64,000 bases of DNA from an uncultured bacterium (GCA_963700745.1 CAVOYT010000012.1:350408-414407); one strand, 5' to 3'. Positions 2,228 to 24,857 are shown, counted from the stretch's first letter. Numbers and translations: made by a program. The notes: generated by a model from the letters alone, not told the origin.

Positions 2228-3001
2228 TCAGTTGCGAGCGGCGATCCAGTCGGCCACCCGGATCGCGTAGTCGAGAACGGCCGCCGCGAGCTCCTCCTCA
2301 CGGCCGGTGAACCGCTGGACGGGAACCGGTATCGACAGGGCCAGCAGGTCGTGGTCCATGGTTCCAGCCACCGCGCCGACCGCGCAGACTCCTTGTGACT
2401 GCTCCTCTAGGTCGAATGCCACGCCCCCGCGGTCACGGACCCGCTGCAGTTCCTCGCGCACCTGCTGGGGCGAGGTGAGGGTGTTCTCCGTCAGGGCTTC
2501 GAGCCGAGCGGCCAGCACGCGCCTGACGTCGACGTCCGGCATGGCGGCGAGGAAGGCCTTCCCGTTCGCACTGGCATGCAGGGCGAAGGAGTCGCCAACG
2601 GAGCTGACCGCACGCAGGCGGTTGTCGGCCACGACCTGATCGACGAACACGGCGCGATCGTTCTCCAGGACGGACAGGTCGACGGTCTCGCCGATCTCGA
2701 GAGAGAAGTCGACCAGGAGGGGATGCAGGTCAAGCCACGCATACCGGCGAGCGGAAGCGGCCAGTCGAACGAGTTCGGGGCCGAGCCGGTAGCGTCCCCG
2801 CGGACCCACTGACACGACGAAGCCCTCTGCCTCCAGCGCCATGAGGAGCCGGCTCACGGTGGAGCGGGCCAGCCCCAGCCGCTCGCCGACGTCAGTCTGG
2901 GTCAACCCGGTCGGGTAGGAGTTGAGCAGCCGCAGGATCTCCGAGGCACGGGCCAGGACCTGGACGCCAGACTTGCCGTCCGCCACTGAGGGGGTCGCCA
3001 T
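2228..3001 (-). CDS. IclR-family transcriptional regulator
   Basis: N-terminal HTH (LGLARSTVSRLL) and C-terminal IclR signatures LHASANGKAFL and EEQSQGVCAVGA. Confidence 0.92.
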   Translation of the reverse strand: MATPSVADGKSGVQVLARASEILRLLNSYPTGLTQTDVGERLGLARSTVSRLLMALEAEGFVVSVGPRGRYRLGPELVRLAASARRYAWLDLHPLLVDFSLEIGETVDLSVLENDRAVFVDQVVADNRLRAVSSVGDSFALHASANGKAFLAAMPDVDVRRVLAARLEALTENTLTSPQQVREELQRVRDRGGVAFDLEEQSQGVCAVGAVAGTMDHDLLALSIPVPVQRFTGREEELAAAVLDYAIRVADWIAARN

Positions 3002-3105: not shown

Positions 3106-3127
3106 TCCCGTATTATGGGAGAAAACT
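3106..3127. promoter_or_regulatory. Putative IclR operator, copy 1 (TCCCGTATTATGGGAGAAAACT)
   Basis: Imperfect palindrome TCCC-N7-GGGA in the divergent IclR/decarboxylase gap; 20/22 identical to 9638-9659. Confidence 0.7.
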
Positions 3128-3192
3128 ACCGCTGAGTGGACCTATTGGCGAAAACCGCCGGCCCACCATACGAACAGGAATCCTTGGCAACC

Positions 3193-4557
3193 ATGACCGA
3201 CCTTCGTGCGTGGCTGCCTCGCGGTGTCGAGTCCATCGAAGAATGGATGACCCAGTTCGGGGCCTTCGAGCAGCATCCCTCCCTGCGCGTCGATGACGTC
3301 GACCTCGACCTGGCCTTCGGACGGTTGACCGACCGACTGCAGGACAACTACCCGTTCGGGCACCCGCGATACGTGGGGCAGATGCTCAAGCCGCCGCACC
3401 CGGTCGCGGTGCTGGGCTACCTCACCGCGATGCTCATCAATCCCAACAACCACGCCCTCGATGGCGGACCGGCCACAGCGCAGATGGAGAAGGAGGTCGT
3501 GGCCCGGCTGGCGGAGATGTTCGGACTGCCGCAGCACCTCGGACACCTCACGTCCAGCGGCACCACCGCCAATCTCGAGGCGCTCTGGGTCGCGCGCGAG
3601 TCGCATCCCGACAAGGCCATCGCGTTCAGCACGGATGCGCATTACACCCACTCGCGCATGTGCCAGGTGCTGGGCGTGGAAGGGGTTCCCGTCGGCACGG
3701 ACGAACGTGGACGCATGGACCTCGGCGAGCTGCAGCGGGTCCTGTCCACCGGTCGGGTGGGCACGGTCGTGGCGACCTTGGGTACCACCGGACTGGGCGC
3801 GCTCGACCCACTGCCGGAGATCGTCGCCCTGGCGCGGGCGCACGGGGCCCGCGTGCACGTCGACACGGCCTATGGAGGCTTCTTCGCCCTGGTCGCCGAC
3901 GATTCCGTCGACGGAGTCGCACGCGCGCCGTACGCCGCGATCGCAGACGTCGACAGCGTCGTCGTCGACCCCCACAAGCACGGACTGCAGCCCTACGGCT
4001 GCGGGGCCGTGCTGTTCTCCGATCCCACGGTCGGCCGGTTCTACGTGCACGACTCGCCCTACACGTACTTCTCCTCCGACGAATTGCACCTTGGCGAGAT
4101 CTCATTGGAGTGCAGCCGCGCGGGTGCTGCGGCCGCCGCGCTCTGGCTCACCCTCGAGGTGATCCCGCTGACGGATGCGGGCCTGGGTCAGGTGCTGCGC
4201 GCGAATCGTCGCGGAGCGCAGGAGTGGAAGCGGCTACTGGATGCCTCGGACCACTTCAGCGCGTACCAGGAGCCCGAGCTCGACATCGTCGCCTACTTCC
4301 CCGCTCGCGCGTCGATGTCCGAGATCGACCGTGCCAGCGCACAGCTGTTCGTCGACGCCGCCGCGTTGCCGCCGGACCAGCAGATCCACCTGGCCACCTA
4401 CTCGGTGAAGGCCGATGCGCTGGCGGCGCGTGGCCACGATGTCGTCGCGGACGTTGACTCCGCCCGCATCGTGCGCAGCACGGTGATGAAGCCCGAGTCC
4501 GCTGACGCCATCCCGCGGATCCACGCGCGCCTGGAGAGCCTCGTCAGGCGTCCCTGA
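3193..4557 (+). CDS. Group II PLP-dependent decarboxylase family protein
   Basis: TSSGTTAN, HVDTAYGG and DPHK (PLP lysine) motifs. ATG at 3193 preferred over the ORF-track start. Confidence 0.85.
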   Translation: MTDLRAWLPRGVESIEEWMTQFGAFEQHPSLRVDDVDLDLAFGRLTDRLQDNYPFGHPRYVGQMLKPPHPVAVLGYLTAMLINPNNHALDGGPATAQMEKEVVARLAEMFGLPQHLGHLTSSGTTANLEALWVARESHPDKAIAFSTDAHYTHSRMCQVLGVEGVPVGTDERGRMDLGELQRVLSTGRVGTVVATLGTTGLGALDPLPEIVALARAHGARVHVDTAYGGFFALVADDSVDGVARAPYAAIADVDSVVVDPHKHGLQPYGCGAVLFSDPTVGRFYVHDSPYTYFSSDELHLGEISLECSRAGAAAAALWLTLEVIPLTDAGLGQVLRANRRGAQEWKRLLDASDHFSAYQEPELDIVAYFPARASMSEIDRASAQLFVDAAALPPDQQIHLATYSVKADALAARGHDVVADVDSARIVRSTVMKPESADAIPRIHARLESLVRRP

Positions 4558-5761
4558 GCCGGACCTCGGCCCCCCGGACGTCATCAATAGATCGTGCACC
4601 GATGAGCTGCATCGTCGTGCGCACCTCCTTCTCCAGGATGTCTGCCACCCGGCGCACGCCCTCCTCGCCGCCGGCCATGAGCCCGTAGAGGTAGGCACGT
4701 CCGACCAGTGCCCCTCGCGCGCCGAAGGCCAGTGCCGCCACGACATCAGTCCCGCTCATGATGCCGCCGTCGATGTAGACCTCTGTGCGCCCGCCCACGG
4801 CCGCGACCACGTCCGGCAGCAGCTCCAGCGGCACGTTGCCCATGTCTGCCTGCCGGCCCCCATGGTTCGACAGCACGATCGCGTCGACGCCGAGGTCGGC
4901 AGCGAGGCGTGCGTCGGCCACGCTCTGGATCCCCTTGACCATGACCCGCCCCGACCAGTTCTGACGGATCCAGGTGATGTCCTCCCCGGTCACGCCCGGA
5001 TCGAAGACGCGGGTGAGCAGGTCCCCGACCGTCCCGCCGGTGGACGACAGGCTCGCGAAGGACAGGGGCTCGGTCGTCAGCACGTCGAACCACCACCTCG
5101 GATGCAGGGCCATCTCGGCCATCGTCGACAGCCGCAGCTGAGGCGGAATCGTGAGGCCGTTCCTCACCTCCCGCCGCCGGATACCCCCGACGGCCGTGTC
5201 GACGGTGAGGATCAGCGTGTCGAAGCCGTTCGCATCCGCCTGCCGCATCAACTCCTCGGGTTGCGCGCGATCGCGGCTCACGTAGAGCTGGAACCAGCGG
5301 CGCGTCTGGGGGCTGGCCGCAGCCAGGTCCTCGATCGAGGTCGTGCCCAGGGTCGACAGGCCGTAGGCGATTCCCTTCTCGGCGGCGACGCGGGCGACCG
5401 CCGCTTCCCCGTCGGAGTGCATCATCCGGGTGAACCCGGTGGGCGCAAAGAGGAACGGTAGGGCGTTCGGCCCGCCCAGCACCTCAATGCGCAGGTCGAC
5501 GTCCGCCACATCGCGCATGACACGAGGCGTGAACTCGACCCGCCGGTAGGCGTCACGACTGCGCCGCAGGCTGGTTTCGGACATCGCGGCGCCGTCGACG
5601 TAGTCGAATACCGCCTTCGGCGCACGGGCACGGGCCATCGCGCGGACGTCCCACACGCTCGAACAGCGCTCGAGCCGACGTTGAAGACGGGTGCGGGAGC
5701 GGTCCACCGTGCCGATGAGCGGCAGGATCTCGGACGGCCGTGGCAGGCGGCGTCTGACCAT
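4544..5761 (-). CDS. FMN-dependent alpha-hydroxy acid dehydrogenase/oxidase
   Basis: FDYVDG, APTG, WFQLY, LTVDT, SNHGGRQ, DGG and GRAYLYGL motifs. Confidence 0.92.
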   Translation of the reverse strand: MVRRRLPRPSEILPLIGTVDRSRTRLQRRLERCSSVWDVRAMARARAPKAVFDYVDGAAMSETSLRRSRDAYRRVEFTPRVMRDVADVDLRIEVLGGPNALPFLFAPTGFTRMMHSDGEAAVARVAAEKGIAYGLSTLGTTSIEDLAAASPQTRRWFQLYVSRDRAQPEELMRQADANGFDTLILTVDTAVGGIRRREVRNGLTIPPQLRLSTMAEMALHPRWWFDVLTTEPLSFASLSSTGGTVGDLLTRVFDPGVTGEDITWIRQNWSGRVMVKGIQSVADARLAADLGVDAIVLSNHGGRQADMGNVPLELLPDVVAAVGGRTEVYIDGGIMSGTDVVAALAFGARGALVGRAYLYGLMAGGEEGVRRVADILEKEVRTTMQLIGARSIDDVRGAEVRLRDA

Positions 5762-5880
5762 GGTGGGGCCTCCTGTGCAGCGGAACCGACAGGATGAGGC
5801 TTCCAGACCTCAGCACTCGGCGTGGCCGGATGCAGATGAACCGCGCCGCCACGTGGGGCGGTCCGAGCGCCAGTAGCGCC

Positions 5881-6698
5881 CTACCGAGGCGGCAGGCTGA
5901 GGATCTGCTCGGTCTCGTCGACCGAGGCGAGGGACAGGTCCATGGCGCGCGCGAGCTCCGCCGTCCGCCGGACCAGCGGAACGTTGCCCTGCGACAGCTC
6001 TCCCTTGCGCAGATAGAGCGTGTCCTCCAGGCCGGCGCGGGCGTTGCCTCCGAGGGCGAGTCCGATGGCAGTGAGCTCGAGGTTCGCCCGGCCGATGGCG
6101 ATGATCTGCCATACGCAGTCGTCAGGAAGCCGGTCGACCATCATCACGAGGTTCGCCGGTGTCGCTGACGCGCCGCCCCGCACGCCCAGGACGATCGAGA
6201 ACTGCAGCGGCGTTGCCAGCAATCCCTCCTCGAAGAGCCGGATGCAGGCATCGAGGTGCCCGGTGTCGTAGACCTCGAGCTCTGGCTTGACGTCCAGCTC
6301 GCGCATGCGGGCGGCGAGCCGGCGCACGCCATCAGGCGGGTTGCGGAACTCACCGGCTGCCGAAGCTCATCGTGCACGGGTTCAGTGTCGCCATCCGCGG
6401 CCGCAGTTCGACGAGTCTTCTCCCGCTCCTCGAAGGGCACGGACAGCCCCACGCCGGTCGAGAGCTGGATGTGGATGGGGCACTTCTCCGCGATGAGGTC
6501 CATCGTCCGGCGGGCGATGGCCAGGTCAGCGGTGGGTCGCTGCTGGTCGTCCCGCAGGTGGATGTGCGCCACCGACGCGCCCTCGAGGTAGGACTCGTAG
6601 ACGGCGTCCGCAATCTCCTCGGGAGACGTCGGCAGGTCGGGGTTGTCCGACTTGAACGCGATCGGCCCGGTCGTGGCCACCGTCAGGACGACGCCCAT
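5881..6698 (-). CDS. BKACE (beta-keto acid cleavage, DUF849) enzyme; candidate triacetate-cleaving lyase; indels near 6420 and 6355
   Basis: P.SPEEIA, AHIHLRD (Zn HxH), QLSTG, ATLNPCTMSFG, KPELEVYD and RAGLED across three frames. Confidence 0.85.
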
Positions 6699-7043
6699 CA
6701 GACGGCCTTCGGGTTGGCGATGGCGACGGCAAGGACGGCGTCGGAGTCGGATTCGTTCGACCAGCTCGCGATGGTCTCCCTTGACGAAGTGCACCGAGTC
6801 GTACTGGCCCAGCCGCTCGGTCTGTCCGTTGGCTCGAAGCACGAACTCGCCGCTCACCACGAAGTAGATCGACTCGCCGACGATGTCGGACGGGCCCGCC
6901 TTGGAACCTGGTGGGTAGACCGACAGTCCCATCCAGAATCCCTCGGTCGGGCCGACCTCCATGCCCTGCAGGCGTCGGGTGTCCACGCCGGTGTGGAAGG
7001 GCGCGTCATAGGGCACTGCCTCGGGATGCTTCGTGATGTGCAT
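6698..7043 (-). CDS. Small cupin-domain protein (indel near 6760)
   Basis: ESIYFVVSGE and DSVHFVKGDHR beta-barrel motifs. Removing one base gives ...ANPKAV-TGA overlapping the BKACE ATG. Confidence 0.75.
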
Positions 7044-7044
7044 G

Positions 7045-7878
7045 TCAGGCGTTGCCCGTCTCGATGCGGTAGGTGCCCTGCGGGTCGGTGATGGCGACCA
7101 GTCGGACGATGCAGCCGTCGCCACCACGCCAGCGCCAGGGGAACGCTGCGAAGGTCACCCGCTTGCCGGTCACCTGATCGACGTCGCCTCCCACGTTCTC
7201 GAACCCGTAGATGCCGTGAGTGAGGATCTCGCGATGGCACGGCTCCCAGAGGGCGAACTCATCCGCCACCTTCTTTCCCGTCTCGGCTTCGTACTCCTCG
7301 CAGGCCCACGGCAGCAGCCCACCCTGAGCCTCGGCCGGTCCGTGCGGGCCGATCGCCGTCGCGAGCGGGTGGTCGAGCGCCTGGGTGTCGGTACCGACCG
7401 CCTTGACGCCCTTGGACACGAACCATTCGCCCGCCTCCTTGTAGAAGCCCGGGCTGTAGGCGTAGTACTCGGCGCTGTCGGCGTACTTGTGGTGCCAGCC
7501 GGTGTTGACGATCACGATGTCGCCGGGACGCACGGGCGTCTTCTCGGCGGCCGCGTCCAGATGCTCGGGCATGATCTTCTCCCACTTGCCCATGGGCACG
7601 TCGAGCACGACGCCGGTTCCGAAGAAGGCGCTGAGCGGGATCTCGTCGAGAAGTGGCGTCCCCTCGACCACGTGGCCCGGCGCATCGATGTGCGTGCCCG
7701 AGTGCATGACCGTGGTGATCTTCTGCGTGAGCACGCGGCTCTTGGCCATGCCATGCAGCCGCTCGATCTTGACGTCCTCGAAGTACGGCCAGCACGGCTG
7801 ACCGAGACCCCAGGAGTGGGAGAGCTCGACGAACTCCAGCTGCGACTCGGCCTCGCCTAGCGGCCACGTGTACGTCAT
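7045..7878 (-). CDS. Cyclase / kynurenine-formamidase-family metal hydrolase; candidate dihydrophloroglucinol cyclohydrolase
   Basis: HSGTHIDAPGH metal motif, GTDTQALDHP and FENV. AGGA SD upstream of ATG 7878. Confidence 0.85.
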   Translation of the reverse strand: MTYTWPLGEAESQLEFVELSHSWGLGQPCWPYFEDVKIERLHGMAKSRVLTQKITTVMHSGTHIDAPGHVVEGTPLLDEIPLSAFFGTGVVLDVPMGKWEKIMPEHLDAAAEKTPVRPGDIVIVNTGWHHKYADSAEYYAYSPGFYKEAGEWFVSKGVKAVGTDTQALDHPLATAIGPHGPAEAQGGLLPWACEEYEAETGKKVADEFALWEPCHREILTHGIYGFENVGGDVDQVTGKRVTFAAFPWRWRGGDGCIVRLVAITDPQGTYRIETGNA

Positions 7879-7906
7879 CGGTCGTTCCTTTCGGTTGGGT
7901 GGGTCG

Positions 7907-8809
7907 TTAGGTCGTTCGTGACTCGAGTTGTGCGGAAACGTGCGCGGCAAGCCGTCGGGCGGCCGCCTCTCGTGCTCCCGCCGGCCAGTCGAGGAATCCG
8001 TGTCCGGTCTTCGCCCCGAGCTCCCCCGCATCCACGAGCTCGCGCAGGTAGGGACTGGGGAAGGGGTCGCTGTTGATGCTCGGCAGCACGGCATCGTGGA
8101 TGGCCAGGGTGAGATCGAGACCGACGTAGTCCGCGTTCTCGATCGGGCCCATCTCTCCCAGCCGCAGCCCGATCGTGTTCTTGACGACTTGGTCCACGGT
8201 CTGCGCGTCGCACACCCCCGTCGCGACGAGGTCGATGGCCTCACGCCAGAGGGCATGCTGCAGCCGGTTGCCGACGAAGCCCGGAACGTCCCGCTCCACC
8301 CGCACCGGCAGCTTGCCCATCGCTGTCATGAATCCGTACGTACGCTCCATGGTCTCGTCGGACGTCCGTTCCCCGCGCACCACCTCGACGATGGGGATGA
8401 GGTCGGGCGGGTTCCAGAAGTGCGTGCCCACGCATCGAGATCCGTCGTCGACGCGCTGCGCGATCGCCGTGATGGGCAGGACCGAGGAGTTCGACGCGAG
8501 GATCGCGGACGGGTTCACACGGCTCATCTCAGCGAAGAGGCCCTGCTTGATCGCGAGGTCCTCGACGATCGCCTCGATGACGAGATCGACTCCCCGCACT
8601 CCTTCGGCCACGGACGCGCTGCCGGCGATGTGGCCCTCGGGAGCCATCTCGCGGGCCCCTGCGAGCCCGCCCGCCAGGACGTCCGCGTCGATATCGACGA
8701 GCGTGACCGGTGTCCCCGAACGGGCCACCAGTCCGGCAAGGCGACGTCCCATGAGCCCGGCGCCGACGACGGCGACCGAGGCAATGGGGTCGGGAACAGA
8801 ACTCAGCAC
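7907..8809 (-). CDS. 3-hydroxyacyl-CoA dehydrogenase-family protein; candidate 3-hydroxy-5-oxohexanoate dehydrogenase
   Basis: GAGLMG, EAIVEDLAIK, SNSS, HFWNPP and PGFVGNRLQ motifs. Confidence 0.88.
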   Translation of the reverse strand: MLSSVPDPIASVAVVGAGLMGRRLAGLVARSGTPVTLVDIDADVLAGGLAGAREMAPEGHIAGSASVAEGVRGVDLVIEAIVEDLAIKQGLFAEMSRVNPSAILASNSSVLPITAIAQRVDDGSRCVGTHFWNPPDLIPIVEVVRGERTSDETMERTYGFMTAMGKLPVRVERDVPGFVGNRLQHALWREAIDLVATGVCDAQTVDQVVKNTIGLRLGEMGPIENADYVGLDLTLAIHDAVLPSINSDPFPSPYLRELVDAGELGAKTGHGFLDWPAGAREAAARRLAAHVSAQLESRTT

Positions 8810-9594
8810 GCCGTGTAGCCACCATCGAGGTAGAGGACCTGCCCGGTCATGAAGGTCGAGGCGTCGCTCAGGAGGTACTGCAGTGCTCCCACGAAGTCCT
8901 CTGGCTCGGCGAACCGCTTGAGCGGGATCCTCGAGAACATCGCCTCCCGGGCCGTCCGACCCTTCTCGTCATCGGCGTACATCCACGCGGTGAGCTCGGA
9001 GCGGAACACCGTCGGGGCGATGACGTTGACCCGGATGCCGGCACCACCCCACTCGGCCGCCAGCGTCTTCCCGAGCAGGTCGACCGCCGCCTTCGAGGGG
9101 CAGTACGCGGAGTATCCGGCCGGGTGGCCGAGCTTGCCGCGAGTCGACGACACGAGGACCACCGAACCGCCCTGACCCTGGTCCAGCAGGACCCGGCCGG
9201 CGGCCTGGGCCATCAGCCAGGAGCCCTTCACGTTCGCGTCCATGACCGATTCCCAGTCCTCGACCGACTGCTCGACGATCGGAGCGACCTTGTTCATCCC
9301 GGAGGCCACGAGCATCCCGTCCAGCCGGCCGAAAGCGTCGACGGCAGCAGCGATGATCGCGGCCGCGTCCTCGGGAGTGTCCGGGCGGTGCGGGGCGATG
9401 GCCGAGTGGCCGACCAGCTCCTCCCGCGCCGCGAGTTCCTCGAGGGCGGAGACGTTGCCACCGGCGAGGGTGACGCTGGCACCTGCCGCCCCCAGGCCGA
9501 GCGCCGCCTCGCGCCCCATCGCCCCGGAGGCTCCCGTGATGACGATCGACTTGCCGGACAGGCTGAATCTGGCCGTCGGGTCCGCAACGCTCAT
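8803..9594 (-). CDS. SDR oxidoreductase, phloroglucinol-reductase-like
   Basis: TGASGAMG, YCPSK, PTVFRSELTAWM, EPEDFVG and C-terminal GGYTAC. These resemble phloroglucinol reductase as I recall it (not aligned). Confidence 0.8.
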   Translation of the reverse strand: MSVADPTARFSLSGKSIVITGASGAMGREAALGLGAAGASVTLAGGNVSALEELAAREELVGHSAIAPHRPDTPEDAAAIIAAAVDAFGRLDGMLVASGMNKVAPIVEQSVEDWESVMDANVKGSWLMAQAAGRVLLDQGQGGSVVLVSSTRGKLGHPAGYSAYCPSKAAVDLLGKTLAAEWGGAGIRVNVIAPTVFRSELTAWMYADDEKGRTAREAMFSRIPLKRFAEPEDFVGALQYLLSDASTFMTGQVLYLDGGYTAC

Positions 9595-9602
9595 GTGGCC
9601 GA

Positions 9603-9631
9603 ACGCTAGGTCGAGATAGGGGGCACGTCAA
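9603..9631 (-). promoter_or_regulatory. Sigma70-type promoter of the SDR operon (TTGACG-N17-TAGCGT)
   Basis: Reverse complement of 9626-9631 and 9603-9608 with 17-nt spacing, 8 nt before the ATG at 9594. Confidence 0.6.
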
Positions 9632-9637
9632 GCGTTT

Positions 9638-9659
9638 TCCCGTATTGCGGGAGAAAACT
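9638..9659. promoter_or_regulatory. Putative IclR operator, copy 2 (TCCCGTATTGCGGGAGAAAACT)
   Basis: Near-copy of 3106-3127, lying just upstream of the -35 box in the divergent SDR/CoA-transferase gap. Confidence 0.7.
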
Positions 9660-9760
9660 CCTGCTTATTGGGATTTCTCTGGAATCTCGCCGGGCCGGGG
9701 ACTAGCATCCGCCAGAGCCGGTCAGCAGTCGGTTGACAGGCGGCCAGCGGAGGAGGACGC

Positions 9761-10516
9761 GTGGACAAGGTGTGGGGCAACGCCGCCGAGGCGGTGTCCG
9801 CCATCCCCCGCGGCGCCTCCGTGGCAGTGGGAGGCTTCGGGCTCAACGGCATCCCCCAGGTGCTGATCGACGCGCTGGTGGCCACCGGCGTGGACGACCT
9901 GCGCGTCGTGTCCAACAACTGCGGAGTGGACGACTGGGGGCTGGGACTGCTGCTGCGCGAGCACCGGATCTCGCGGGTCACGGCCTCGTACGTCGGGGAG
10001 AACAAGGAGTTCGAGCGCCAGTACCTGTCCGGAGAGCTCGAGGTCGAGCTGATCCCGCAGGGCACCCTGGCCGAGCGCCTGCGCGCCGGCGGCGCAGGGA
10101 TCCCGGCCTTCTACACCCCCGCCGGTGTGGGGACACCGGTGGCGGACGGCGGGATGCCGCTGCGGCACGCCGCCGATGGCAGCGTGGCGATCGCGTCCGA
10201 GCCGAAGGAGACCCGCCAGTTCGACGGTCAGGAGTACGTCCTGGAGCGCGGCATCACCACCGACTTCGCCCTGGTTCACGCGAGCGTCGGCGACCGCCAC
10301 GGGAACCTGGTCTTCGCCAAGGCCACCCGCAACTTCAACCCACTCACGGCGGCCGCCGGCCGGGTCACCATCGCGGAGGTCGAGCAGCTCGTGGAACCCG
10401 GCGAGATCGACCCGGCCAACGTGCACACCCCGGGGATCTTCGTGCAGCGCGTGGTGGTGCTCACGCCCGAGCAAGTGGCGGCAAAGCGGATCGAGCGACG
10501 GACGGTGCGGGCATGA
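9761..10516 (+). CDS. scoA: 3-oxoacid CoA-transferase subunit A
   Basis: GGFG, SNNCG, SYVGEN, PQGTLAERLRAGGAGIP and RNFNP motifs. Confidence 0.9.
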   Translation: MDKVWGNAAEAVSAIPRGASVAVGGFGLNGIPQVLIDALVATGVDDLRVVSNNCGVDDWGLGLLLREHRISRVTASYVGENKEFERQYLSGELEVELIPQGTLAERLRAGGAGIPAFYTPAGVGTPVADGGMPLRHAADGSVAIASEPKETRQFDGQEYVLERGITTDFALVHASVGDRHGNLVFAKATRNFNPLTAAAGRVTIAEVEQLVEPGEIDPANVHTPGIFVQRVVVLTPEQVAAKRIERRTVRA

Positions 10517-10552
10517 GCGCCGCGCACGACGCCAGGGACGAGGAGGCTCGCG

Positions 10553-11185
10553 ATGCCCTGGACGCGTGAGGAACTCGCCGCCCGCGTCGGGCGCGAGCTC
10601 TCCGACGGTCAGTACGTGAACCTCGGCATCGGACTGCCGACGCTCATCCCCAACCACCTCCCCGACGGCGTGCACGTCGTGCTGCAGTCCGAGAACGGCA
10701 TTCTCGGGACCGGGCCCTACCCCACCGAGGAGCAGGTGGACCCCGACCTCATCAACGCGGGCAAGGAGACCGTCACGGTGCTGCCGGGCGCCTCCTACTT
10801 CGACTCCGCCACGAGCTTCGGCATGATCCGCGGCGGCCACATCGACGTCGCCGTCCTCGGGGCGATGCAGGTCTCCGTCGCAGGTGACCTGGCCAACTGG
10901 ATGATCCCCGGCAAGATGGTCAAGGGCATGGGCGGCGCCATGGACCTGGTCCACGGCGCCAAGCGCGTCATCGTCATGATGGAGCACACGGCCAAGGACG
11001 GCAGCCCGAAGATCCTCGATCACTGCACCCTGCCGCTCACCGGCAGGGCCGTCGTCCACCGCATCATCACCGACCTGGGCGTCATCGACATCACCCCCGA
11101 GGGGCTCGTCCTCGTCGAGACCGCACCGGGGGTCAGCGCCGAGGACGTTCGTGCCGCCACCGGTGCGAACGTCGCGACGAACTAG
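10553..11185 (+). CDS. scoB: 3-oxoacid CoA-transferase subunit B
   Basis: [15 protein letters not shown] (catalytic Glu) and [10 protein letters not shown] motifs. Confidence 0.9.
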
Positions 11186-12027
11186 CCGCCGACAGGGGCG
11201 GACGGTCGCTCGTCGAACTCGACGACGCCCATCCCCGTGATCCAGGGCACCACCGGCTCGTAGGCCAGGACGGTCGCCGGCGTCGGGGCGGCTGCCGCCG
11301 CCACCGCCACCCAGCTTCGGATCTCGTGCGCGCCGTTGCCGGCGAGCACGATCTCGTCGTCGGTCATGTCGAGGAGGGACTCGACGTCTCCGGCAGCCAG
11401 GCGGGCCAGGAACCAACGATCGAACTCCTCGTCGATGTCGCCCACCCGCGGGTGACCGACCCAGTGCGACAGCCCCCCGGCGCCGATCAGCGCCACGCGC
11501 TCGCCGCCGGGGAAGGAGTCGATCGCGTGACGCAGGGCCACCCCGAGGTCCCACGAGCGCCGCAGCGGCATCAGCGGAGGCACGGCGCAGTTCTGCACGA
11601 TCGGAATGAGCCTCGTGCGGTGCTGGGGGTCGAGCTCCTGGTACACCGTCATGATCCCGTGGTCCATGTCGAGCCGGTGCGAGAACGCAGGATCGAGGCC
11701 GTTGCCCAGGAGTCCCTCGACGAGGTGGGTCGCCAACGCCGGATCGCCGTCGATCCACCCCTGTTCGATGCCCAGCCACGGTTCCGCGGGGCCACGGTTG
11801 CGCTCCCCCACCCCGATGCAGACCTGCGGGAAGGACTCGAGGAAGAAGTTCGTGAAGTGCTCGTTGGCCAGGATGATCATGGCATCCACGGCCCGCTCCG
11901 CCACCTGCTCGCGCAGGTGCGCGAGGGCTCCGAAGAAGTGGTCCTGCTGCTCGGCGGTCGCGGCCTCGCGGGCCGACGCCATCATCGGCGCGTGCGACGA
12001 GCAGGCTGCCAGCACTAGCTCTGCCAT
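11182..12027 (-). CDS. LigB/CarBb-type extradiol dioxygenase catalytic subunit
   Basis: SHAP, EHFTNFF, DHG, GGLSHW and GAHEIRSW metal/catalytic motifs. Confidence 0.85.
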
Positions 12028-12290
12028 CGTCCCCTCCCCTCCTCGGCAACCGCGTAGGGCTGGAGGATGGCCCGGTAGTCGTCGCGCGAGTAGCCCACCT
12101 CCCGGCAGTAGCGGTTGAGCAGCACCCCGTGAAGTCCCAGCTGGTAGAAGGCCGCCACGTCGCGCTTGTCGAACGCCGCCCGCTCCTCAACTGACAGGTC
12201 ATATCGATCCGGGTTGAAGGTCTCGGGCTGACCCGTCTCATTCGCTCGGATGAAGTCGTACACGCACCGATGCATGTCGTACCAGGTCAT
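12015..12290 (-). CDS. LigA/CarBa-like small dioxygenase subunit
   Basis: 91 aa from ATG 12290 (ATGA overlap with the upstream gene); YDLSVEERAAF...D...LGLHGVLL pattern; directly upstream of the LigB-type gene. Confidence 0.7.
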   Translation of the reverse strand: MTWYDMHRCVYDFIRANETGQPETFNPDRYDLSVEERAAFDKRDVAAFYQLGLHGVLLNRYCREVGYSRDDYRAILQPYAVAEEGRGRWQS

Positions 12291-13306
12291 CGCGCTCCCT
12301 CCTCCAGCGACAGCCCCAGCAGCGCCGCTGCCGACCGCCAGGTGATCAGGCTCTCGTCGATCTCGCCGAGTCCGAGCGAGGCGACCGCGCCGAGCGGGTC
12401 CCGGTCGGCGAGCTCGAACGGGAAGTCCGTGCCGATCAGCAGCCGATCCGCACCAAGGTCCTCGGCAAGGTGGCCCAGCAGCTCCGGAGAGAAGACCGCG
12501 GTGTCGTAGTAGAGCCTGGCCGTGTAGGCGCTCGGCGGAAGCGGGGTCGAGTGCGCCACGTCCTTGCGCTCCCAGCCCATGTCGAGCCTGCCGCGCACTG
12601 ACGGCAGGCAGCCCCCGCCGTGCGCCAGGCACAGCGGGAACCGGTACCGCTCGAGGATCCCGGAGAACGCCAGTCGCGTGACCGCGACCGCCGTCTCCAT
12701 CGGGTAGCCGAGCAGCTGGGGAAGGTAGTAGTCGCGCAGGCGGTGCAGATCCGGCACCCCACTGGGGTGCAGGAACGTGAATGCCGACCGTTCCGCCACG
12801 AGCTTCCACAGCGGCTCGTTCACCGGGTCGTCCACCTCGCGGCCGGCACCACGCGTCCCGATGGTGATGCCCGCCATGCCCTCGTCAAGGCAGATCCGCG
12901 CTTCGTCGGCTACGCCACCGAGTCCCAGCGGCGCAGTCCCCAGGGCCACCAGCCGATCCGGAACTTCCTCGACGAACGCCGCGAGCTCCCGGTTGCCACG
13001 GGTGACCACCTCGGCGGCGAGATCCTCGTCCTCGGTGGTCGAGCAGAACAGGAACGGCGGGAGCGAGACCGCGTGGTGCGAGATGCCAGCGTCGTCCATG
13101 GCCCGCAAGCGCGCTTCAACATCCCACTGCGATCGGGCCAGCGGCAGCGGGGTGCCGGGCGCCACCCCGCTGACGCGCGCATCGAGTCGGACAACGCCGG
13201 AATCGGCCGTCGTGTCGACATCGGAGAGGTCGGCGAGCCCACGCTCCTCCAGCCACCGCAGGTGCGGCAGTGGCATCGCATGCGCGTGAATGTCGATGGC
13301 TGGCAT
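12287..13306 (-). CDS. Amidohydrolase_2 (ACMSD-like) decarboxylase/hydratase
   Basis: IDIHAH, FLHP, AHGGG, YYDT and GTDFPF motifs. Confidence 0.85.
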   Translation of the reverse strand: MPAIDIHAHAMPLPHLRWLEERGLADLSDVDTTADSGVVRLDARVSGVAPGTPLPLARSQWDVEARLRAMDDAGISHHAVSLPPFLFCSTTEDEDLAAEVVTRGNRELAAFVEEVPDRLVALGTAPLGLGGVADEARICLDEGMAGITIGTRGAGREVDDPVNEPLWKLVAERSAFTFLHPSGVPDLHRLRDYYLPQLLGYPMETAVAVTRLAFSGILERYRFPLCLAHGGGCLPSVRGRLDMGWERKDVAHSTPLPPSAYTARLYYDTAVFSPELLGHLAEDLGADRLLIGTDFPFELADRDPLGAVASLGLGEIDESLITWRSAAALLGLSLEEGAR

Positions 13307-13376: not shown

Positions 13377-14150
13377 ATGGCGGCAGCAGGCCCCAGTGTC
13401 ACCTCGCGAGCCCTCGCCGTCCTTGGCGCGCTCGACGAGGATCACGCCCGACTCACCCTGAGCGAGTTGTCCGCTCGATCGGGTCTGCCGCTGTCCACCA
13501 CCCATCGACTGGTGGCCGAGCTGGTCGAGTGGGGGGCCCTCGAGCGGGACGATGACGCGCGCTACGTCGTCGGCCGTCGACTCTGGCAGCTCGGGACGCT
13601 CGCGCCCGTCCACCGTGGACTGAGGGAGATCGCCCTGCCCCCGATGCAGGATGTCTACGCCGTGACACAGGAGAACGTTCACCTGGCCGTGCGCTCGGGA
13701 AAGGTCGCCCTCTACGTCGAGCGCATCTACGGCGCGAGTTCCGTTGCTCTCGTGAGCCGACCGGGTGCACGGCTTCCGTTGCACGCCACGGGAGTCGGCA
13801 AGGTCCTGCTTGCCCATGCCCCGGACGACGTCATCGGCGCCGTGCTGTCCGACCTTGCGCCCGTGACTCGCTACACGATCACCGAGTCGGGGCGGATGGC
13901 GCGTGAACTGAGCGGCGTCCGCCGCCACGGGTACGCCCGCACGTCGGAGGAGATGACTCTCGGCACATGCTCGATCGCGGTCCCGATCCGCGACCAGGCC
14001 GGAGAGGTTGCCGCGTCCCTCGGGCTCGTGACACGAACCGGCCGCCGGGACCTGGTGAAGCACGTTCCGGCCCTCGAGGTCGCGGCCGTCGCGATCAACC
14101 GCGGGCTGCGACAGGATGCTGCGGACCGCGCCTTCCGCTCAACGGAATGA
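13377..14150 (+). CDS. IclR-family regulator (PobR-like by context)
   Basis: SGLPLSTTHRL HTH and LHATGVGKVLLA; immediately upstream of pobA. Confidence 0.9.
   Translation: MAAAGPSVTSRALAVLGALDEDHARLTLSELSARSGLPLSTTHRLVAELVEWGALERDDDARYVVGRRLWQLGTLAPVHRGLREIALPPMQDVYAVTQENVHLAVRSGKVALYVERIYGASSVALVSRPGARLPLHATGVGKVLLAHAPDDVIGAVLSDLAPVTRYTITESGRMARELSGVRRHGYARTSEEMTLGTCSIAVPIRDQAGEVAASLGLVTRTGRRDLVKHVPALEVAAVAINRGLRQDAADRAFRSTE
14133..14147. promoter_or_regulatory. Putative IclR operator upstream of pobA (TTCCG-CTCAA-CGGAA)
   Basis: Perfect 5-bp inverted repeat ending 43 nt before the pobA ATG, inside the 3' end of the regulator gene. Confidence 0.6.
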
Positions 14151-14190
14151 GGCGCTGGCGGCGGCGCGGTACCCCCACCACCATCGGCCC

Positions 14191-15369
14191 ATGCGAACGC
14201 AGGTCGGCATCATCGGCGCGGGTCCCGCGGGTCTCCTGCTGTCCCAGCTGCTCGACCGGAACGGCATCGACTCAGTCATCGTCGAGAACCGCTCCCAGGA
14301 TTACGTGGAGTCGCGCATCCGGGCCGGTGTCATCGAGCACGGAGCCGTTCACACGCTCACGGATGCGGGCGTGGCCGAGCGCCTCCACCGCGAGGGAATG
14401 CGGCACGACGGCATCTACCTGCAGTGGCCCGGCGAGCGTCATCACCTCGACTTCCCCGACCTCTGCGGCCAGTCCGTCTGGGTCTACGGGCAGACGGAGC
14501 TGACGAAGGACCTGTTCCGCATCCGTGCGGAGGCCGAGCAGCAGATCCACTTCGAGGTCTCGGACGTCGCCATCGTCGATCCGCTGAGCGACCGCCCCCG
14601 CATCACCTTCACGGACCTGTCCGGGACGCCCCAGGTGCTCGAGTGCGACGTCGTCGCCGGCTGCGACGGCTTCCACGGTGTCAGCCGCGACACCATCCCG
14701 GAGTCCGTGCGCACGGTCTGGCAGCGGGTCTACCCGTACTCGTGGCTGGGCGTCCTGGCTGAGGTCGCACCCTCGACCGACGAGCTCATCTACGCGTGGC
14801 ACCCCGACGGGTTCGCCCTGCACAGCATGCGCTCGGCCTCGATCAGCCGGCTGTACGTCCAGGTGGCGCCGGACGAGGTGATCGAGGACTGGTCCGACGA
14901 CCGGATCTGGCACGCGTTGTCAACGCGCATGGCCCTGGACGGATGGACGCTGGACTCGGGCCCCACGCTCGAGAAGGGCATCACTCCCATGCGCAGCTTC
15001 GTAAGCGCGCCGATGCGCTACGGCAACCTCTTCCTCGCCGGTGACGCAGCACACATCGTGCCGCCTACGGGCGCGAAGGGCCTCAATCTGGCCATCGCCG
15101 ACGTCACGCGGCTCAGTGACGCGCTGGTTCGGCGGTTCAAGAACGGCGCAGACGACCTCGTCGATTCCTACTCCGACGCGGCCTTGCGCCGCGTCTGGCG
15201 GTCCACCCACTTCTCCTGGTGGATGACGAGCATGCTGCACGTCGAGGACCCGGCAGATCCGAACGCCGGCTTCCTCCAGCAGATGCAGCTCGCGCAACTT
15301 CGGTACGTCACCTCGTCGCGCGCCGCCGGGGCCAGCCTGGCTGAGAACTACACGGGCTTCCAGGGCTGA
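14191..15369 (+). CDS. pobA: 4-hydroxybenzoate 3-monooxygenase
   Basis: MRTQVGIIGAGPAGL, RIRAG, VYGQTE, GCDGFHGVSR, LAGDAAHIVPPTGAKGLNLA and LAENYTG. Confidence 0.95.
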   Translation: MRTQVGIIGAGPAGLLLSQLLDRNGIDSVIVENRSQDYVESRIRAGVIEHGAVHTLTDAGVAERLHREGMRHDGIYLQWPGERHHLDFPDLCGQSVWVYGQTELTKDLFRIRAEAEQQIHFEVSDVAIVDPLSDRPRITFTDLSGTPQVLECDVVAGCDGFHGVSRDTIPESVRTVWQRVYPYSWLGVLAEVAPSTDELIYAWHPDGFALHSMRSASISRLYVQVAPDEVIEDWSDDRIWHALSTRMALDGWTLDSGPTLEKGITPMRSFVSAPMRYGNLFLAGDAAHIVPPTGAKGLNLAIADVTRLSDALVRRFKNGADDLVDSYSDAALRRVWRSTHFSWWMTSMLHVEDPADPNAGFLQQMQLAQLRYVTSSRAAGASLAENYTGFQG

Positions 15370-15414: not shown

Positions 15415-16270
15415 TCAGACTGCGATCGTGGCCTCGGCTGCCTCCACGACGTTGGTGATCAGCATGGCCCGGGTCATCGGCCCCACACCGCCAGGCATCG
15501 GTGCCACGAAGGCGGCCACCTCCATGACGTCCGGGGCGACGTCCCCCACCAGGCCGGCCTCGGTGCGGGTGATGCCCACGTCGAGGACGGCGGCACCAGG
15601 TCGCACGAGATCAGAGGTGACCAGATGCGGGACCCCCGCTGCGGCGACGATGATGTCCGCGCGGCGCAGGTGGTCGGCCAGGTGCCGGGTACCCGTATGG
15701 CAGAGGGTCACGGTCGCGTTCTCCGACTTGCGGGTCAGGAGCAGGCCGAGCGGACGACCGACGGTCACCCCCCTGCCGACGACAACGACCTCGGCGCCGT
15801 TGATCTCGACGTCATAGCGCCGCAGGAGCTCGACGATTCCTCTGGGCGTGCACGGCAGTGGCGCAGGCTCACCGAGGACCAGGCGCCCGAGGTTGGTGGG
15901 GTGCAGGCCGTCGGCGTCCTTCGCCGGATCCATCAAGGTGAGGACGCGGTTGGCGTCGAGGTGCTTCGGCAGGGGCAGCTGCACGATGTACCCGGTCACC
16001 GATGGGTCCTCGTTGAGCCGATGGATCTCGGCGTCGAGCTGCTCCTGACGTGGTGTCGGCCGGCAGGTCGACCCGTATGGAGGCGATCCCCACCTCGGCG
16101 CAGTCCTTGTGCTTGCCGCCCACGTACGCATGACTGCCGGGATCGTCGCCGACGAGGACGGTTCCCAGGCCCGGCAGGATCCCGCGCTCGCGCAGGGCGT
16201 CCACGCGGACCTTGAGATCGGCCTTCACGCTGGCCGCGGTGGCCTTGCCGTCGAGGATCGTTGCAGTCAT
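15415..16270 (-). CDS. folD: Methylenetetrahydrofolate dehydrogenase/cyclohydrolase (indel near 16050)
   Basis: [34 protein letters not shown] and PGGVGPMT motifs. Confidence 0.95.
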
Positions 16271-16386
16271 GGCCCCATCCTCTCAGGCGACGTCGAAGCA
16301 CCACTCACTGCAAACGATTGGGAGGAGAATCGCGCTGCACTGCGGTTGACACCGGCCATGATCGTCGGGTGTGATGCCTCCGCGGC

Positions 16387-16400
16387 TACAATCGATTGCA
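16387..16400. promoter_or_regulatory. LacI-type operator (TACAATCGATTGCA)
   Basis: CG-centred palindrome repeated at 24826, 27485 and 37608; a weaker copy, TGCAAACGATTG, lies at 16309. Confidence 0.75.
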
Positions 16401-16446
16401 GAACTTCCCAGCCCGCACCGACACGACCAGGAAGCAGGACCGACGA

Positions 16447-17713
16447 ATGAGCGTCCGACCGGCCTCGGAATTTGCCCAGACGTCCATCCCCGCGCCCGGG
16501 ATCATCGGCGTGGACTGGGAGGAGCGGGTCGACTTCACCCGGTTGCGGGACTATCGCACCTCGCGGGCGCGTGAAGCGCTGGAGAACAGTGATCTCGGCG
16601 CCCTGCTCGTCTTCGAGTCGTCGAACATCCGCTACCTGACGGCCACGCACATCGGGACCTGGGGCTACAACAAGACCGAGCGCTGGGCGCTGCTCACCCG
16701 CACCGGCGAGCCGTGGGTCTGGGACTTCGGCTCGGCGGCGAAGAACCACCGCATGTACTCCCCGTGGCTGCTGCCCGAGCATTCGAACGGCGGCAACACC
16801 GGGCTCCAGGGTGCGATCTCACCGCTCTCGGGCCTGCCACGGGGGGCGGCGCAGGAGATCGCCGCCATCCTTCGCGAGGAGGGCGTCGCCGGGATGCCCC
16901 TGGGCGTCGACGTCGTCGAGATGCCGATGCTGCGCGAGCTGGAGGCGGCCGGCATCGACGTCCGTGACGGCCAGCAGGTCATGCTCGACGCCCGGCAGAT
17001 CAAGAACCGCGACGAGATCCTGCTGCTCAGCCAGGCGGCTGCGATGGTCGACGGCGTCTACCAGGACATCTACGAGTTCCTCAAGCCCGGGGTGCGCGAG
17101 AACGATGTGGTCGCCCTGGCCACCAAGCGGCTGATCGAGATGGGATCGGAGCAGGTCGAGGCGATCAACTCGATCGCCGGCGAGCGCTGCAGCCCGCACC
17201 CGCACGTCTTCTCGGACCGCTACATCCGACCGGGTGACCAGGCCTACTTCGACATCATCCACTCCTTCAACGGCTACCGGACCTGCTACTACCGCACGTT
17301 CGCGGTGGGTCGGGCGACGCGAGTCGCATCGGCACGCCTACAAGAAGGCCCGCGAGCTCATCGACAGCGCGATCGCCCTGGTGAAGCCCGGGACGAGCAC
17401 CGCCGACATCGCCAAGCTGTGGCCCAAGGCCAACGAGTTCGGCTTCAGCTCCGAGATGGAGGCGTTCGGCCTGCAGTTCGGCCACGGCCTGGGCCTCGGC
17501 CTGCACGAACGCCCCGTCATCAGCCGGCTGAACTCCCTCGACAACCCGGTCGAGATCAAGGAGGGCATGGTGTTCGCCCTGGAGACGTACTGGCCAGCCG
17601 ACGACGGCCACTCCGCCGCGCGCATCGAGGAGGAGCTCGTCGTGACCGCGGACGGGGCGGAGCTGCTGACGCTGTTCCCGGCCGAGGAGCTCGTCGTCAC
17701 CAACCCGTACTAG
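16447..17713 (+). CDS. M24 (Xaa-Pro peptidase/creatinase fold) hydrolase with atypical metal ligands (indel near 17320)
   Basis: NIRYLT, ARQIK, FGHGLG, ALETY and RIEEE motifs. Confidence 0.85.
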
Positions 17714-17758
17714 AGGGCCACGCACCCCAGCCCGAAGAGCCCCACCGAGAGCGGACTC

Positions 17759-19214
17759 GTGAGCCTCTACGACGTCAGCAACCCCGACCACGTCAACCTC
17801 TACATCGGTGGCCAGTGGCTCCCGGCCTCCGACGGTGAGCGGTTCGACGTGACCGACCCGTCGACCGGCGAGCTCATCGCCAGCGTCGCCAGCGGCTCCC
17901 CCGACGACGCCCGCGCGGCGGTCGCCGCCGCATCGGCGGCATCGGATGCCTGGGCGGCCACCGCCCCCCGCGCTCGCGGCGAGATCCTGCGCCGGGCCTT
18001 CGAGCTGATGATCGAGAACCGCGACGAGCTCGCCGAGCTGATCTCGCTCGAGAGCGGCAAGGCCTGGAGCGACGCGCAGGGCGAGGTCACCTATGCGGCC
18101 GAGTTCTTCCGCTGGTTCTCCGAGGAGGCGGTGCGCGCCACCGGGCATGTGCAGACGGCCCCCAACGGGGACAAGCGGATCCTCACGGTCCTGCAGCCGG
18201 TCGGGGTCTCCGTCCTCATCACGCCGTGGAACTTCCCGGCGGCCATGGCCACCCGCAAGATGGGCCCCGCCCTGGCAGCGGGCTGCCCCGTCGTCCTGAA
18301 GCCGGCCTCCGACACTCCCCTGACCGCGCTGGCCCTGGCCGTCCTCATGGAGCGGGCCGGCGCACCCGCGGGAGTCGTCAACGTGCTGCCGTCGCGTCGC
18401 TCCGGCGCCGTGGCCGAGGCCATGCTCATGCAGCCGGCCACCCGCAAGCTGTCGTTCACCGGATCGACCGAGGTGGGGCGCACGCTGCTGGAGCTGGCCG
18501 CGCGCAACGTCGTCAACTGCTCGATGGAGCTCGGCGGCAATGCCCCGTTCCTCGTCTTCGGCGACTCGGACATCGATGCCGCCGTCGAGGGCGCGATGGT
18601 CGCCAAGATGCGCAACGGCGGTGAGTCGTGCATCGCCGCGAACCGCTTCATCGTCGAGGACTCGGTGGCCGACGAGTTCTCCGACGAAGCTGGCCGCCGC
18701 CATGGGTGCCATGAAGGTGGGCCCCGGCAGTGACCGGACCTCGCAGGTCGGGCCGATGATCAACGTGCGCGCGGTCGACGACATCGCGTCGATGGTCGAC
18801 TCGAGCGTGGCCGCCGGCGCGACGGTCCTCGTCGGCGGCAGCCGCCCCGACGGTCCCGGCGCGTACTACCCGCCGACGGTCCTGTCGGGCCTGTCCGGCG
18901 ACGACCCGATCCTGGACGTGGAGATCTTCGGACCCGTCGCGCCGGTCGTCGCGTTCTCCGGCGAGGACGAGGCGGTGGCGCTGGCCAACGCCACCCCGTT
19001 CGGACTCGCCGCCTACGTCTACACCGGCGACCTCGGACGCGCCCTCCGCGTGGCCGAGCGCGTGGACGCCGGCATGGTGGGCGTCAACCGCGGCTTCATC
19101 TCCGACCCCGCTGCCCCGTTCGGCGGCGTCAAGCAGAGCGGCCTGGGACGTGAGGGCGGGCACGAGGGCCTGCTGGAGTTCCTCGAGGCCAAGTACATCG
19201 CCGTCGACTGGTAG
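17759..19214 (+). CDS. gabD: NAD(P)-dependent succinate-semialdehyde-dehydrogenase-like aldehyde dehydrogenase (indel near 18685)
   Basis: ITPWNFP, FTGST, ELGGNAP, RNGGESC, EIFGP and PFGGVKQSG motifs. Confidence 0.8.
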
Positions 19215-19967: not shown

Positions 19968-19983
19968 CTCCTGGTCGCCCACC

Positions 19984-20487: not shown

Positions 20488-20513
20488 GCGTCCTCCGTAC
20501 TGGGATGGGTATG

Positions 20514-24837: not shown

Positions 24838-24857
24838 GGCGAGAAGCAAGGGATCAG

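Follow-up and report, generated by a model that had tools for sequence, protein, structure and literature searches.

A stretch of 64,000 nucleotides (nt) from an uncultured bacterium (GCA_963700745.1 CAVOYT010000012.1:350408-414407), referred to here as the window, contains five minus-strand genes that probably form an operon for the oxygen-independent catabolism of phloroglucinol (1,3,5-trihydroxybenzene), a phenol of plants and algae. Our rough probability for this reading is 0.8. The genes encode a short-chain dehydrogenase/reductase (SDR) resembling phloroglucinol reductase (PGR), a 3-hydroxyacyl-CoA-dehydrogenase (3HCDH)-family protein that is a candidate (S)-3-hydroxy-5-oxohexanoate dehydrogenase (TfD), a cyclase-family candidate dihydrophloroglucinol cyclohydrolase (DPGC), a cupin, and a BKACE-family candidate triacetate acetoacetate-lyase (TAL). 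A 3-oxoacid CoA-transferase (ScoAB) is encoded divergently. An initial annotation of the window had proposed a reductive phloroglucinol pathway with ScoAB activating the acetoacetate, and homology, synteny and motifs all support the proposal. The novelty that it implied has not survived, the pathway in aerobic actinobacteria and proteobacteria being already in print. Reading the operon as a reductive phloroglucinol route in an aerobic host is right, but such routes are already known in actinobacteria, and this lineage is a new member.

Proposed pathway

In the proposed pathway, the SDR would reduce phloroglucinol to dihydrophloroglucinol at the expense of NAD(P)H. The metal-dependent cyclase-family enzyme would then open the ring by retro-Claisen hydrolysis, yielding (S)-3-hydroxy-5-oxohexanoate, which the 3HCDH-family enzyme would oxidise to triacetate (3,5-dioxohexanoate). 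The BKACE enzyme, by transfer of an acetyl unit taken from acetyl-CoA, would form acetoacetate and acetoacetyl-CoA, and the divergently encoded ScoAB, with succinyl-CoA, would convert the acetoacetate to acetoacetyl-CoA. A thiolase encoded elsewhere would complete the conversion to acetyl-CoA for aerobic respiration. The cupin gene, which sits between the genes for the second and fourth steps, would be the conserved fifth member, and an IclR-family regulator probably controls the operon, ScoAB and its own gene via a 15 bp palindrome.

The organism appears equipped to respire oxygen, with two haem-copper oxidase (COX1) loci in its genome. Together with the oxygenase genes next door to the operon, these agree with the initial description of an apparently aerobic, oxygenase-carrying bacterium.

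The phloroglucinol reductase-like SDR

The closest solved relative of the SDR, by sequence and by fold, is the phloroglucinol reductase of Clostridium. The best sequence match in the PDB is 5g4k/5g4l (E 3.9e-50, 174 bits), with the next match at E 1.1e-38 and 136.5 bits. In a Foldseek search with an AlphaFold2 (AF2) model of the SDR (37 orthologues, pLDDT 87.9), ranks 1-3 are held by 5g4l/5g4k, with a TM score of 0.90 and 38-39% identity. The identity of these structures is taken from the Foldseek entry title, 'Phloroglucinol reductase from Clostridium sp.'; a literature search turned up no paper that cites 5G4K or 5G4L.

The four SDR motifs named in the initial annotation are all present (YCPSK, PTVFRSELTAWM, EPEDFVG and a C-terminal GGYTAC) and align with the same motifs in 5g4k, the catalytic YCPSK being matched there by YCTSK. 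When the entire genome (3.34 Mb) is translated in all six frames, PTVFRSxLTxWM, EPEDFVG and GGYxxC followed by a stop each occur once only. Among 95 related loci the same three, in that order, are found in 75, 44 and 79.

The cyclase-family, 3HCDH-family and BKACE proteins

The DPGC candidate matches PF04199, and its sequence HSGTHIDAPGH aligns with the metal motif of isatin hydrolase; the general pattern, HxGTHxDxPxH, is that of isatin hydrolase and kynurenine formamidase. The substrate site of the characterised Clostridium scatologenes enzyme (CsDPGC) is reported to differ in having Trp20 and Tyr22 (PMC10470551). In the window protein W30-P31-Y32 is invariant across the 77 loci to which the listed patterns apply, and is likened to CsDPGC Trp20/Tyr22 by spacing only. 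An alignment of 13 full-length cyclase-family representatives has the metal motif and the Trp-Pro pair widespread in the family. The protein is 77-81% identical to those of Mycobacterium, Streptomyces, Nocardiopsis and Jatrophihabitans, and 70-72% identical to gammaproteobacterial ones.

In the TfD candidate the catalytic Ser (NSS), His (HFWNP) and Asn (GNR) align with those of a solved 3-hydroxybutyryl-CoA dehydrogenase, 9fbd, and all of its NCBIfam matches fall under their cut-offs. The BKACE protein has PF05853 in both of the pieces into which its gene is divided, together with the metal-ligand motifs AHIHL (HxH) and GLED. Its best PDB match is Kce, the enzyme of lysine fermentation (2y7d, E 3.4e-51), although it scores under the cut-off of the Kce equivalog model (269 against 382 bits). 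At the position of Kce Glu14, all 44 readable orthologues have Ile. The characterised C. scatologenes enzyme, CsTAL, has Trp16 at this place (PMC10470551). The model NF053538, for a 3,5-dioxohexanoate:acetyl-CoA acetone transferase, is also matched under its cut-off (170 against 430 bits).

No NCBIfam model scores above its cut-off for any of the four enzymes. The orthologues carry generic names in RefSeq and other public records: 'SDR family oxidoreductase', 'cyclase family protein' or 'kynurenine formamidase', 'cupin domain-containing protein' and '3-keto-5-aminohexanoate cleavage protein'. The expectation that standard annotation would miss the pathway is therefore borne out. CAMPER, a specialised annotation tool, names two of the pathway enzymes.

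Gene organization

Open reading frame (ORF) listing, Pfam scans and tight junctions confirm a packed minus-strand operon of SDR, 3HCDH, cyclase, cupin and BKACE genes (Table 1). The stop codon of PGR overlaps the GTG start of TfD. Upstream of DPGC there is a 28 nt spacer containing a Shine-Dalgarno sequence, the DPGC stop is separated from the cupin ATG by 1 nt, and the TGA of the cupin gene runs into the ATG of BKACE. Such close packing is what a translationally coupled operon would show. The divergent CoA-transferase was likewise correctly called; ScoA and ScoB are adjacent and each exceeds its curated NCBIfam cut-off. The operon as originally described was correct in its gene layout, and had overlooked three 1 nt insertions that break the cupin and BKACE frames, which are considered below. 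Simple scans for sigma-70 promoters and terminators gave nothing in 4300-11400.

Table 1. Coordinates in the window of the operon, its divergent partner, predicted regulatory features and examples of split genes.
Feature	Position	Strand	Basis and remarks
Phloroglucinol-reductase-like SDR (PGR), 263 aa	8803..9594	-	Pfam adh_short_C2 160 bits
3HCDH-family protein, candidate (S)-3-hydroxy-5-oxohexanoate dehydrogenase (TfD), 300 aa	7907..8809	-	Pfam 3HCDH_N and 3HCDH
Cyclase-family protein, candidate dihydrophloroglucinol cyclohydrolase (DPGC), 277 aa	7045..7878	-	Pfam Cyclase 126 bits; ORF 7045-8256, true start ATG 7878
Rv1717-family cupin, ~114 aa, one spurious base near 6759	6698..7043 (ATG 7043)	-	Frame reading; NCBIfam NF050094
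BKACE-family protein, candidate triacetate acetoacetate-lyase (TAL), ~271 aa, two spurious bases (~6416-6418, 6359)	5881..6698	-	Pfam BKACE, two ORFs
3-Oxoacid CoA-transferase subunit A (ScoA)	9761..10516	+	Pfam CoA_trans 242 bits; TIGR02429 253 > 128.5 bits
3-Oxoacid CoA-transferase subunit B (ScoB)	10553..11185	+	Pfam CoA_trans 184.5 bits; TIGR02428 339.5 > 243.55 bits
Palindrome TCCCGTATTGCGGGA, candidate IclR operator, in the 166 bp PGR/ScoA divergent intergenic region	9638..9652	.	Conserved in G001 and L037
Second palindrome copy TCCCGTATTATGGGA, with 2 mismatches, in the intergenic region shared by IclR and the divergent PLP-decarboxylase gene	3106..3120	.	Just upstream of IclR
IclR-family regulator, probable operon regulator	2228..3001	-	Pfam IclR_C and HTH_IclR
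Split-gene stretches, examples	15418-16282, 16375-17710, 17714-19211, 19789-22814, 22705-24049, 25064-27440, 46781-48154		

Relatives and published clusters

Scanning a single genome for each species gave 440 relatives. The synteny counts given here are from the best 80, all Actinomycetota, compared by tblastn with the window proteins. Some 50 of these are Mycobacterium species. The closest relatives by DPGC (93-98% identical) are metagenome-assembled genomes (MAGs) with titles such as Actinomycetes and Candidatus Nanopelagicales. The order PGR-TfD-DPGC-cupin-TAL is present in 42 of the 80 loci. A further 29, mostly Mycobacterium, have PGR and DPGC only, followed in most cases by IclR (L052, L058, L061, L065, L067 and 24 more), and the remaining nine have other combinations, some ended by contig boundaries. 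ScoAB adjoins the cluster in just two (L027 and L037). Within the window's own genus the trait is patchy, with an orthologous PGR in one of 24 other sampled species, the congener G001.

Six loci are titled 'MAG: Bifidobacterium breve' (L025, L028, L031, L034, L038 and L068). Five of their DPGCs are 95-97% identical to that of the window and that of L068 is 78% identical. The five group with the loci titled Actinomycetes or Nanopelagicales, and the species label looks wrong.

The four enzymes PGR, DPGC, TfD and TAL of C. scatologenes were characterised by Zhou et al. 2023, who noted such clusters in marine alpha- and gammaproteobacteria, Mesorhizobium, Bradyrhizobium and 'various Mycobacterium species' (PMC10470551). 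In 2018, Rv1714-Rv1716 had been described as about 40% identical to a Clostridium polyphenol cluster (PMC5894108), and a 2026 preprint on SAR116 holds that this chemistry is not limited by oxygen. A further paper considered as a source on the cluster, PMC8562490, was dropped, its subject being Rv1775. The supplementary cluster tables of Zhou et al. 2023 may already include relatives of this organism.

In both the window and C. scatologenes, genes of the four enzyme families lie together, close to those for a CoA-transferase that would act on acetoacetate. The two clusters also have in common the SDR motifs and fold and a BKACE protein without the Glu of Kce, and the window DPGC carries the cyclase metal motif and a W-x-Y. 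They differ in that the window host is aerobic and has ScoAB instead of CtfAB, an extra cupin gene and no thiolase, transporter or fermentation genes in the cluster. The window PGR also lacks an NADPH-motif Arg, and its TAL has Ile rather than Trp16.

The resemblance to the Mycobacterium cluster is closer. The order SDR-3HCDH-cyclase-cupin-BKACE is the same, protein identities are 44-81%, and the two share the family of IclR regulator as well as the palindrome upstream. Against the Mycobacterium-type loci, PGR is 66-76% identical, TfD 54-65%, DPGC 78-81% and TAL 73-78%; taken together, the proteins are 52-81% identical to those of the Mycobacterium clusters, for which the pathway is already proposed in PMC10470551. 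Going by locus-tag order, we take the Rv1714-Rv1716 cluster to extend to the cupin Rv1717 and a BKACE gene. The IclR gene directly follows TAL in the Mycobacterium cluster, whereas in the window genes for an FMN (flavin mononucleotide)-dependent dehydrogenase and a PLP (pyridoxal phosphate)-dependent decarboxylase lie between.

A search of plasmids (7 records) added clusters on alphaproteobacterial plasmids, namely pLA3 of Novosphingobium pentaromativorans and pDY25-C of Pacificitalea manganoxidans. These have a cyclase 57-73% identical to that of the window, a homologous cupin, an SDR and a 3HCDH. On pLA3 the order is cyclase-cupin-SDR-3HCDH-MFS-BKACE, with a BKACE gene as in the window. On pDY25-C it is cyclase-MBL-cupin-SDR-3HCDH, with a gene for a metallo-beta-lactamase (MBL)-fold hydrolase and no BKACE in the stretch shown. 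Unlike the window cluster, the plasmid clusters have another gene order, internal transporters and TetR/IclR regulators.

Points against the phloroglucinol pathway and other substrates

Several points weigh against the assignment of this operon to phloroglucinol. Each catalytic step and substrate is assigned from homology, synteny and motifs, and the link to CsDPGC, CsTfD and CsTAL runs via the statement on Mycobacterium in PMC10470551. The SDR is only 38-40% identical to the solved Clostridium PGR. PGRs are said to conserve a TR(S/N) motif in contact with the NADPH 2'-phosphate (PMC10470551); the loop reads MTGRN in 5g4k and LAGGN in the window SDR, so that the Arg is missing. It is missing at this position from all 75 readable actinobacterial homologues, nine of which have an Arg two residues later. 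The Ile of TAL where CsTAL has Trp16 is a further difference. Neither a transporter nor a phloroglucinol-producing enzyme was found nearby, the thiolase is outside the cluster (there are four thiolase loci elsewhere in the genome), and the later-step genes, missing from 29 of the 80 loci, are not always linked to PGR and DPGC. The DAPG/phloretin hydrolase family (PF18089) had no match in this 83% complete genome, a negative of no weight given that the control matched in no genome either.

The absence of the Arg lowers the case for a typical PGR and not that for the reduction of phloroglucinol. The cofactor of the SDR may be NADH. TfD is reported to prefer NADH (PMC10470551), and if both enzymes used it the two redox steps would cancel out.

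Some of these points would also suit an enzyme set that performs the same chemistry on another substrate, such as a methyl-, acyl- or carboxy-phloroglucinol or another cyclic 1,3-di- or triketone. This is an unlikely alternative, though the strongest of those weighed. The low identity of PGR to the characterised enzyme would fit it, as would the departures from the characterised enzymes in the PGR cofactor loop and the TAL specificity residue, and the conserved extra cupin, a word absent from the main text of the C. scatologenes paper (PMC10470551). The M. tuberculosis protein ProX, moreover, binds acyl-phloroglucinols and phloretin (PMC5894108). However, DPGC is exceptionally well conserved, at 70-81% identity across Actinomycetota and Gammaproteobacteria, the substrate-side motifs of PGR are common to the solved enzyme, and the products of a substituted ring would not obviously be handled by an unchanged set of TfD, TAL and ScoAB. 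Phloroglucinol itself remains the more probable substrate.

Frame breaks in the cupin and BKACE genes

As written, the window has three 1 nt insertions, at about 6759, at about 6416-6418 and at 6359, which run the cupin and BKACE frames together and leave BKACE divided among three. It would be possible to read these as real, with the operon in decay and the pathway broken in this organism. The three insertions do fall inside 400 bp, and the presence of an orthologous PGR in only one of the 24 sampled congeners suggests that the trait is dispensable.

The insertions are peculiar to the assembly. A nucleotide alignment to the syntenic congener G001, in which the cupin and BKACE genes are intact, has exactly three gaps over 1222 bases at 85% identity, all of them 1 nt insertions in the window. 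Public metagenome contigs were also compared with window 5881-7100. The inserted base at 6359 is missing in all three covering runs (X1, X2 and X3), that at 6418 in all three (X1, X2 and X4), and that at 6759/6760 in both (X1 and X2). The contigs that lack the inserted bases include ones otherwise identical to the window (runs X1, X3 and X4). One of the covering runs may be the sample of origin, which does not weaken the case for error because its own contigs disagree with the assembly at these sites.

Frame changes are also found throughout the genome assembly (3.34 Mb in 15 contigs, with 83% marker completeness). A survey began from 114 long, strongly coding ORFs in 257 kb of G001, 59 of which had a match of at least 70% identity in this genome. 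Frame changes within the match were found in 16 of the 59, with 21 changes per 23,406 aligned residues, or about 1 per 3.3 kb. Both COX1 genes of the genome are in three frames each. At least seven other window genes are split between two frames: those for FolD, an M24 peptidase, an aldehyde dehydrogenase, 2-oxoacid dehydrogenase E1 and E2, a molybdopterin subunit and DUF6350.

The three frame breaks are therefore assembly errors, and in the living organism both genes are intact, because public contigs are without all three bases, the congener genes are intact and frame changes are genome-wide. There are no further disabling changes in the operon, identity to G001 holding at 85% throughout, and its decay is very improbable.

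It is hardly credible that the BKACE, 3HCDH and ScoAB proteins serve a lysine-fermentation-like or general beta-keto-acid pathway with the SDR and cyclase as unrelated neighbours; the BKACE protein does belong to the TIM-barrel family of Kce, with HxH and Glu metal ligands, but it is under the equivalog cut-off, has Ile where the Glu14 of Kce binds the amino group and lies in another genomic context, with the five genes together in 42 of 80 loci and translationally overlapping, and no lysine aminomutase or other lysine-fermentation genes in the window.

The cupin

The cupin is the most novel point of the operon. In the frameshifted window ORF it has no Pfam match, and the intact G001 orthologue matches Cupin_2 above its threshold (31.5 > 27.2 bits). 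The NCBIfam model NF050094 'beta-D-galactosidase', built on Rv1717 of M. tuberculosis, matches the G001 protein over its full length (1-112 of 113) at 123 bits and the window piece at 99 bits, both under the cut-off of 175. The cupin is of the same family as Rv1717 in the wide sense, judging from these matches. Rv1717 has been reported to hydrolyse a para-nitrophenyl (pNP) galactoside (PMC7873859); in the accessible part of that paper's text, operon, Rv1716 and Rv1718 do not occur.

Among the 45 loci with a TAL gene, 42 have the cupin between DPGC and TAL, and it is present in seven further loci. A search from the cupin side was made in 400 evenly drawn Actinomycetota genomes (E <= 1e-12), with matches in 11 genomes at 12 places. 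Ten of these adjoin DPGC and PGR homologues, in the order IclR-DPGC-cupin-PGR-TfD, and the other two, both in one genome, are in a BKACE-cupin-SDR-3HCDH set. No match outside such clusters was found in this 400-genome sample. The cupins of the alphaproteobacterial plasmids are 34% identical over their full length (E 3e-18 and 1e-22). The cupin is found in such clusters of two phyla and in three gene orders.

The family alignment has nine invariant residues (Tyr12, His17, Arg24, Gln26, Glu57, Asp82, Ser83, Arg92 and Asn96) and no HxH metal motif. The AF2 model (pLDDT 91.8) is like small monocupins, including TM1459, the polyketide cyclase RemF and KdgF, and there is no glycosidase among the 35 fold matches listed. 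A Dke1-type cupin dioxygenase acting on triacetate-derived acetylacetone was considered and set aside, the cupin having no HxH. No paper with 'cupin' or Rv1717 alongside phloroglucinol terms was found in a literature search.

From its genomic association we take the cupin to be a component of the pathway, which may be a helper for the tautomerisation or ring opening of dihydrophloroglucinol, or for the unstable triacetate. A tentative joint reading, quite possible and still somewhat doubtful, would give the Rv1717-family cupin a place of its own as fifth component of the pathway in aerobic Actinomycetota and Alphaproteobacteria, perhaps as a metal-poor tautomerase or as an aid to ring opening with dihydrophloroglucinol or triacetate as its substrate; the name 'beta-D-galactosidase' would then miss its main role. 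In the same reading the reductase without the NADPH-specifying Arg would perhaps use NADH, leaving the redox steps balanced, and an IclR repressor would switch the set through the palindrome TCCCGYAWTRCGGGA.

A search of 14 well-known genomes with the Rv1717-type cupin model gave a match, below the cut-off, in Caulobacter vibrioides alone. If a phloroglucinol-type cluster exists in this species, it would be a convenient model organism.

Regulation

The palindrome between PGR and ScoA is likely to be an IclR operator. It is kept in both of the relatives that share the divergent PGR/ScoA layout (G001 and L037), and the two sites listed in Table 1 are the only ones in the window. They are placed as would be expected if an IclR repressor regulated its own gene together with the operon and ScoAB. 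The IclR protein is 49-58% identical to the IclR encoded directly after TAL or DPGC in most Mycobacterium-type loci, and 61-76% identical to that of four nearer relatives.

Sites with two or fewer mismatches to the 15-mer or to a common mycobacterial variant were counted in the 73 loci whose upstream sequence is long enough. The 260 bp ahead of PGR contain 50 sites, spread over 44 of the 73 loci, or 2.6 per kb, against a background of four sites in the remaining ~921 kb of these loci. Drawing the consensus from the very sequences counted makes for some circularity, and the background from the same loci is the fair control. A looser pattern, CCCG-N3-7-CGGG, is present upstream of PGR in 24 of the 73 loci, which is near chance for the GC content, and was replaced by the count of the full 15-mer.

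Neighbouring genes

Genes for a PLP-dependent decarboxylase (3136-4557, plus strand) and an FMN-dependent 2-hydroxyacid dehydrogenase (4544-5761, minus strand) lie between those for TAL and IclR. The decarboxylase gene has in common with IclR the intergenic region that holds the second palindrome, and such a gene is near the cluster in L028, L030 and L037.

On the other side, ScoAB is adjoined by a trio of genes also found in G001. The first encodes a LigB-type extradiol dioxygenase (11182-12027, minus strand), with gallate dioxygenase and the beta subunit of protocatechuate 4,5-dioxygenase as best PDB matches. It is followed by genes for an Amidohydro_2 protein most like ACMSD decarboxylases (12287-13306, minus strand) and a PobA-type 4-hydroxybenzoate 3-monooxygenase (14116-15369, plus strand; 562 bits, above the subfamily cut-off). 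We take this trio to resemble the pra genes for protocatechuate 2,3-cleavage. With the phloroglucinol operon beside it, the trio looks like part of a small island for flavonoid-breakdown products.

Two xanthine-dehydrogenase-family sets ([2Fe-2S] and molybdopterin-binding subunits; 24453-27440 and 61756-63950, both plus strand) are frame-broken and unrelated to the pathway.

Implications

The apparent pseudogenes of this assembly, which is rich in single-base indels, are to be regarded as suspect. With the operon intact, one more uncultured actinobacterial lineage, from marine sediment and seawater metagenomes, joins the known carriers of the reductive phloroglucinol pathway. Runs X8-X22, in which word shares are small, do not enter into this statement of habitat. 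Carriage would fit a diet of algal phlorotannins or plant flavonoids, and is another instance of oxygen-independent dearomatisation being common in aerobes.

The pathway itself is ordinary, and experiments would best be aimed at the cupin and the predicted operator. A conserved fifth gene, with a database name that comes from an unrelated assay, is a likely component of the pathway that can be approached experimentally, and with an operator and a regulator predicted, pathway induction could be tested in carriers that can be grown in culture.

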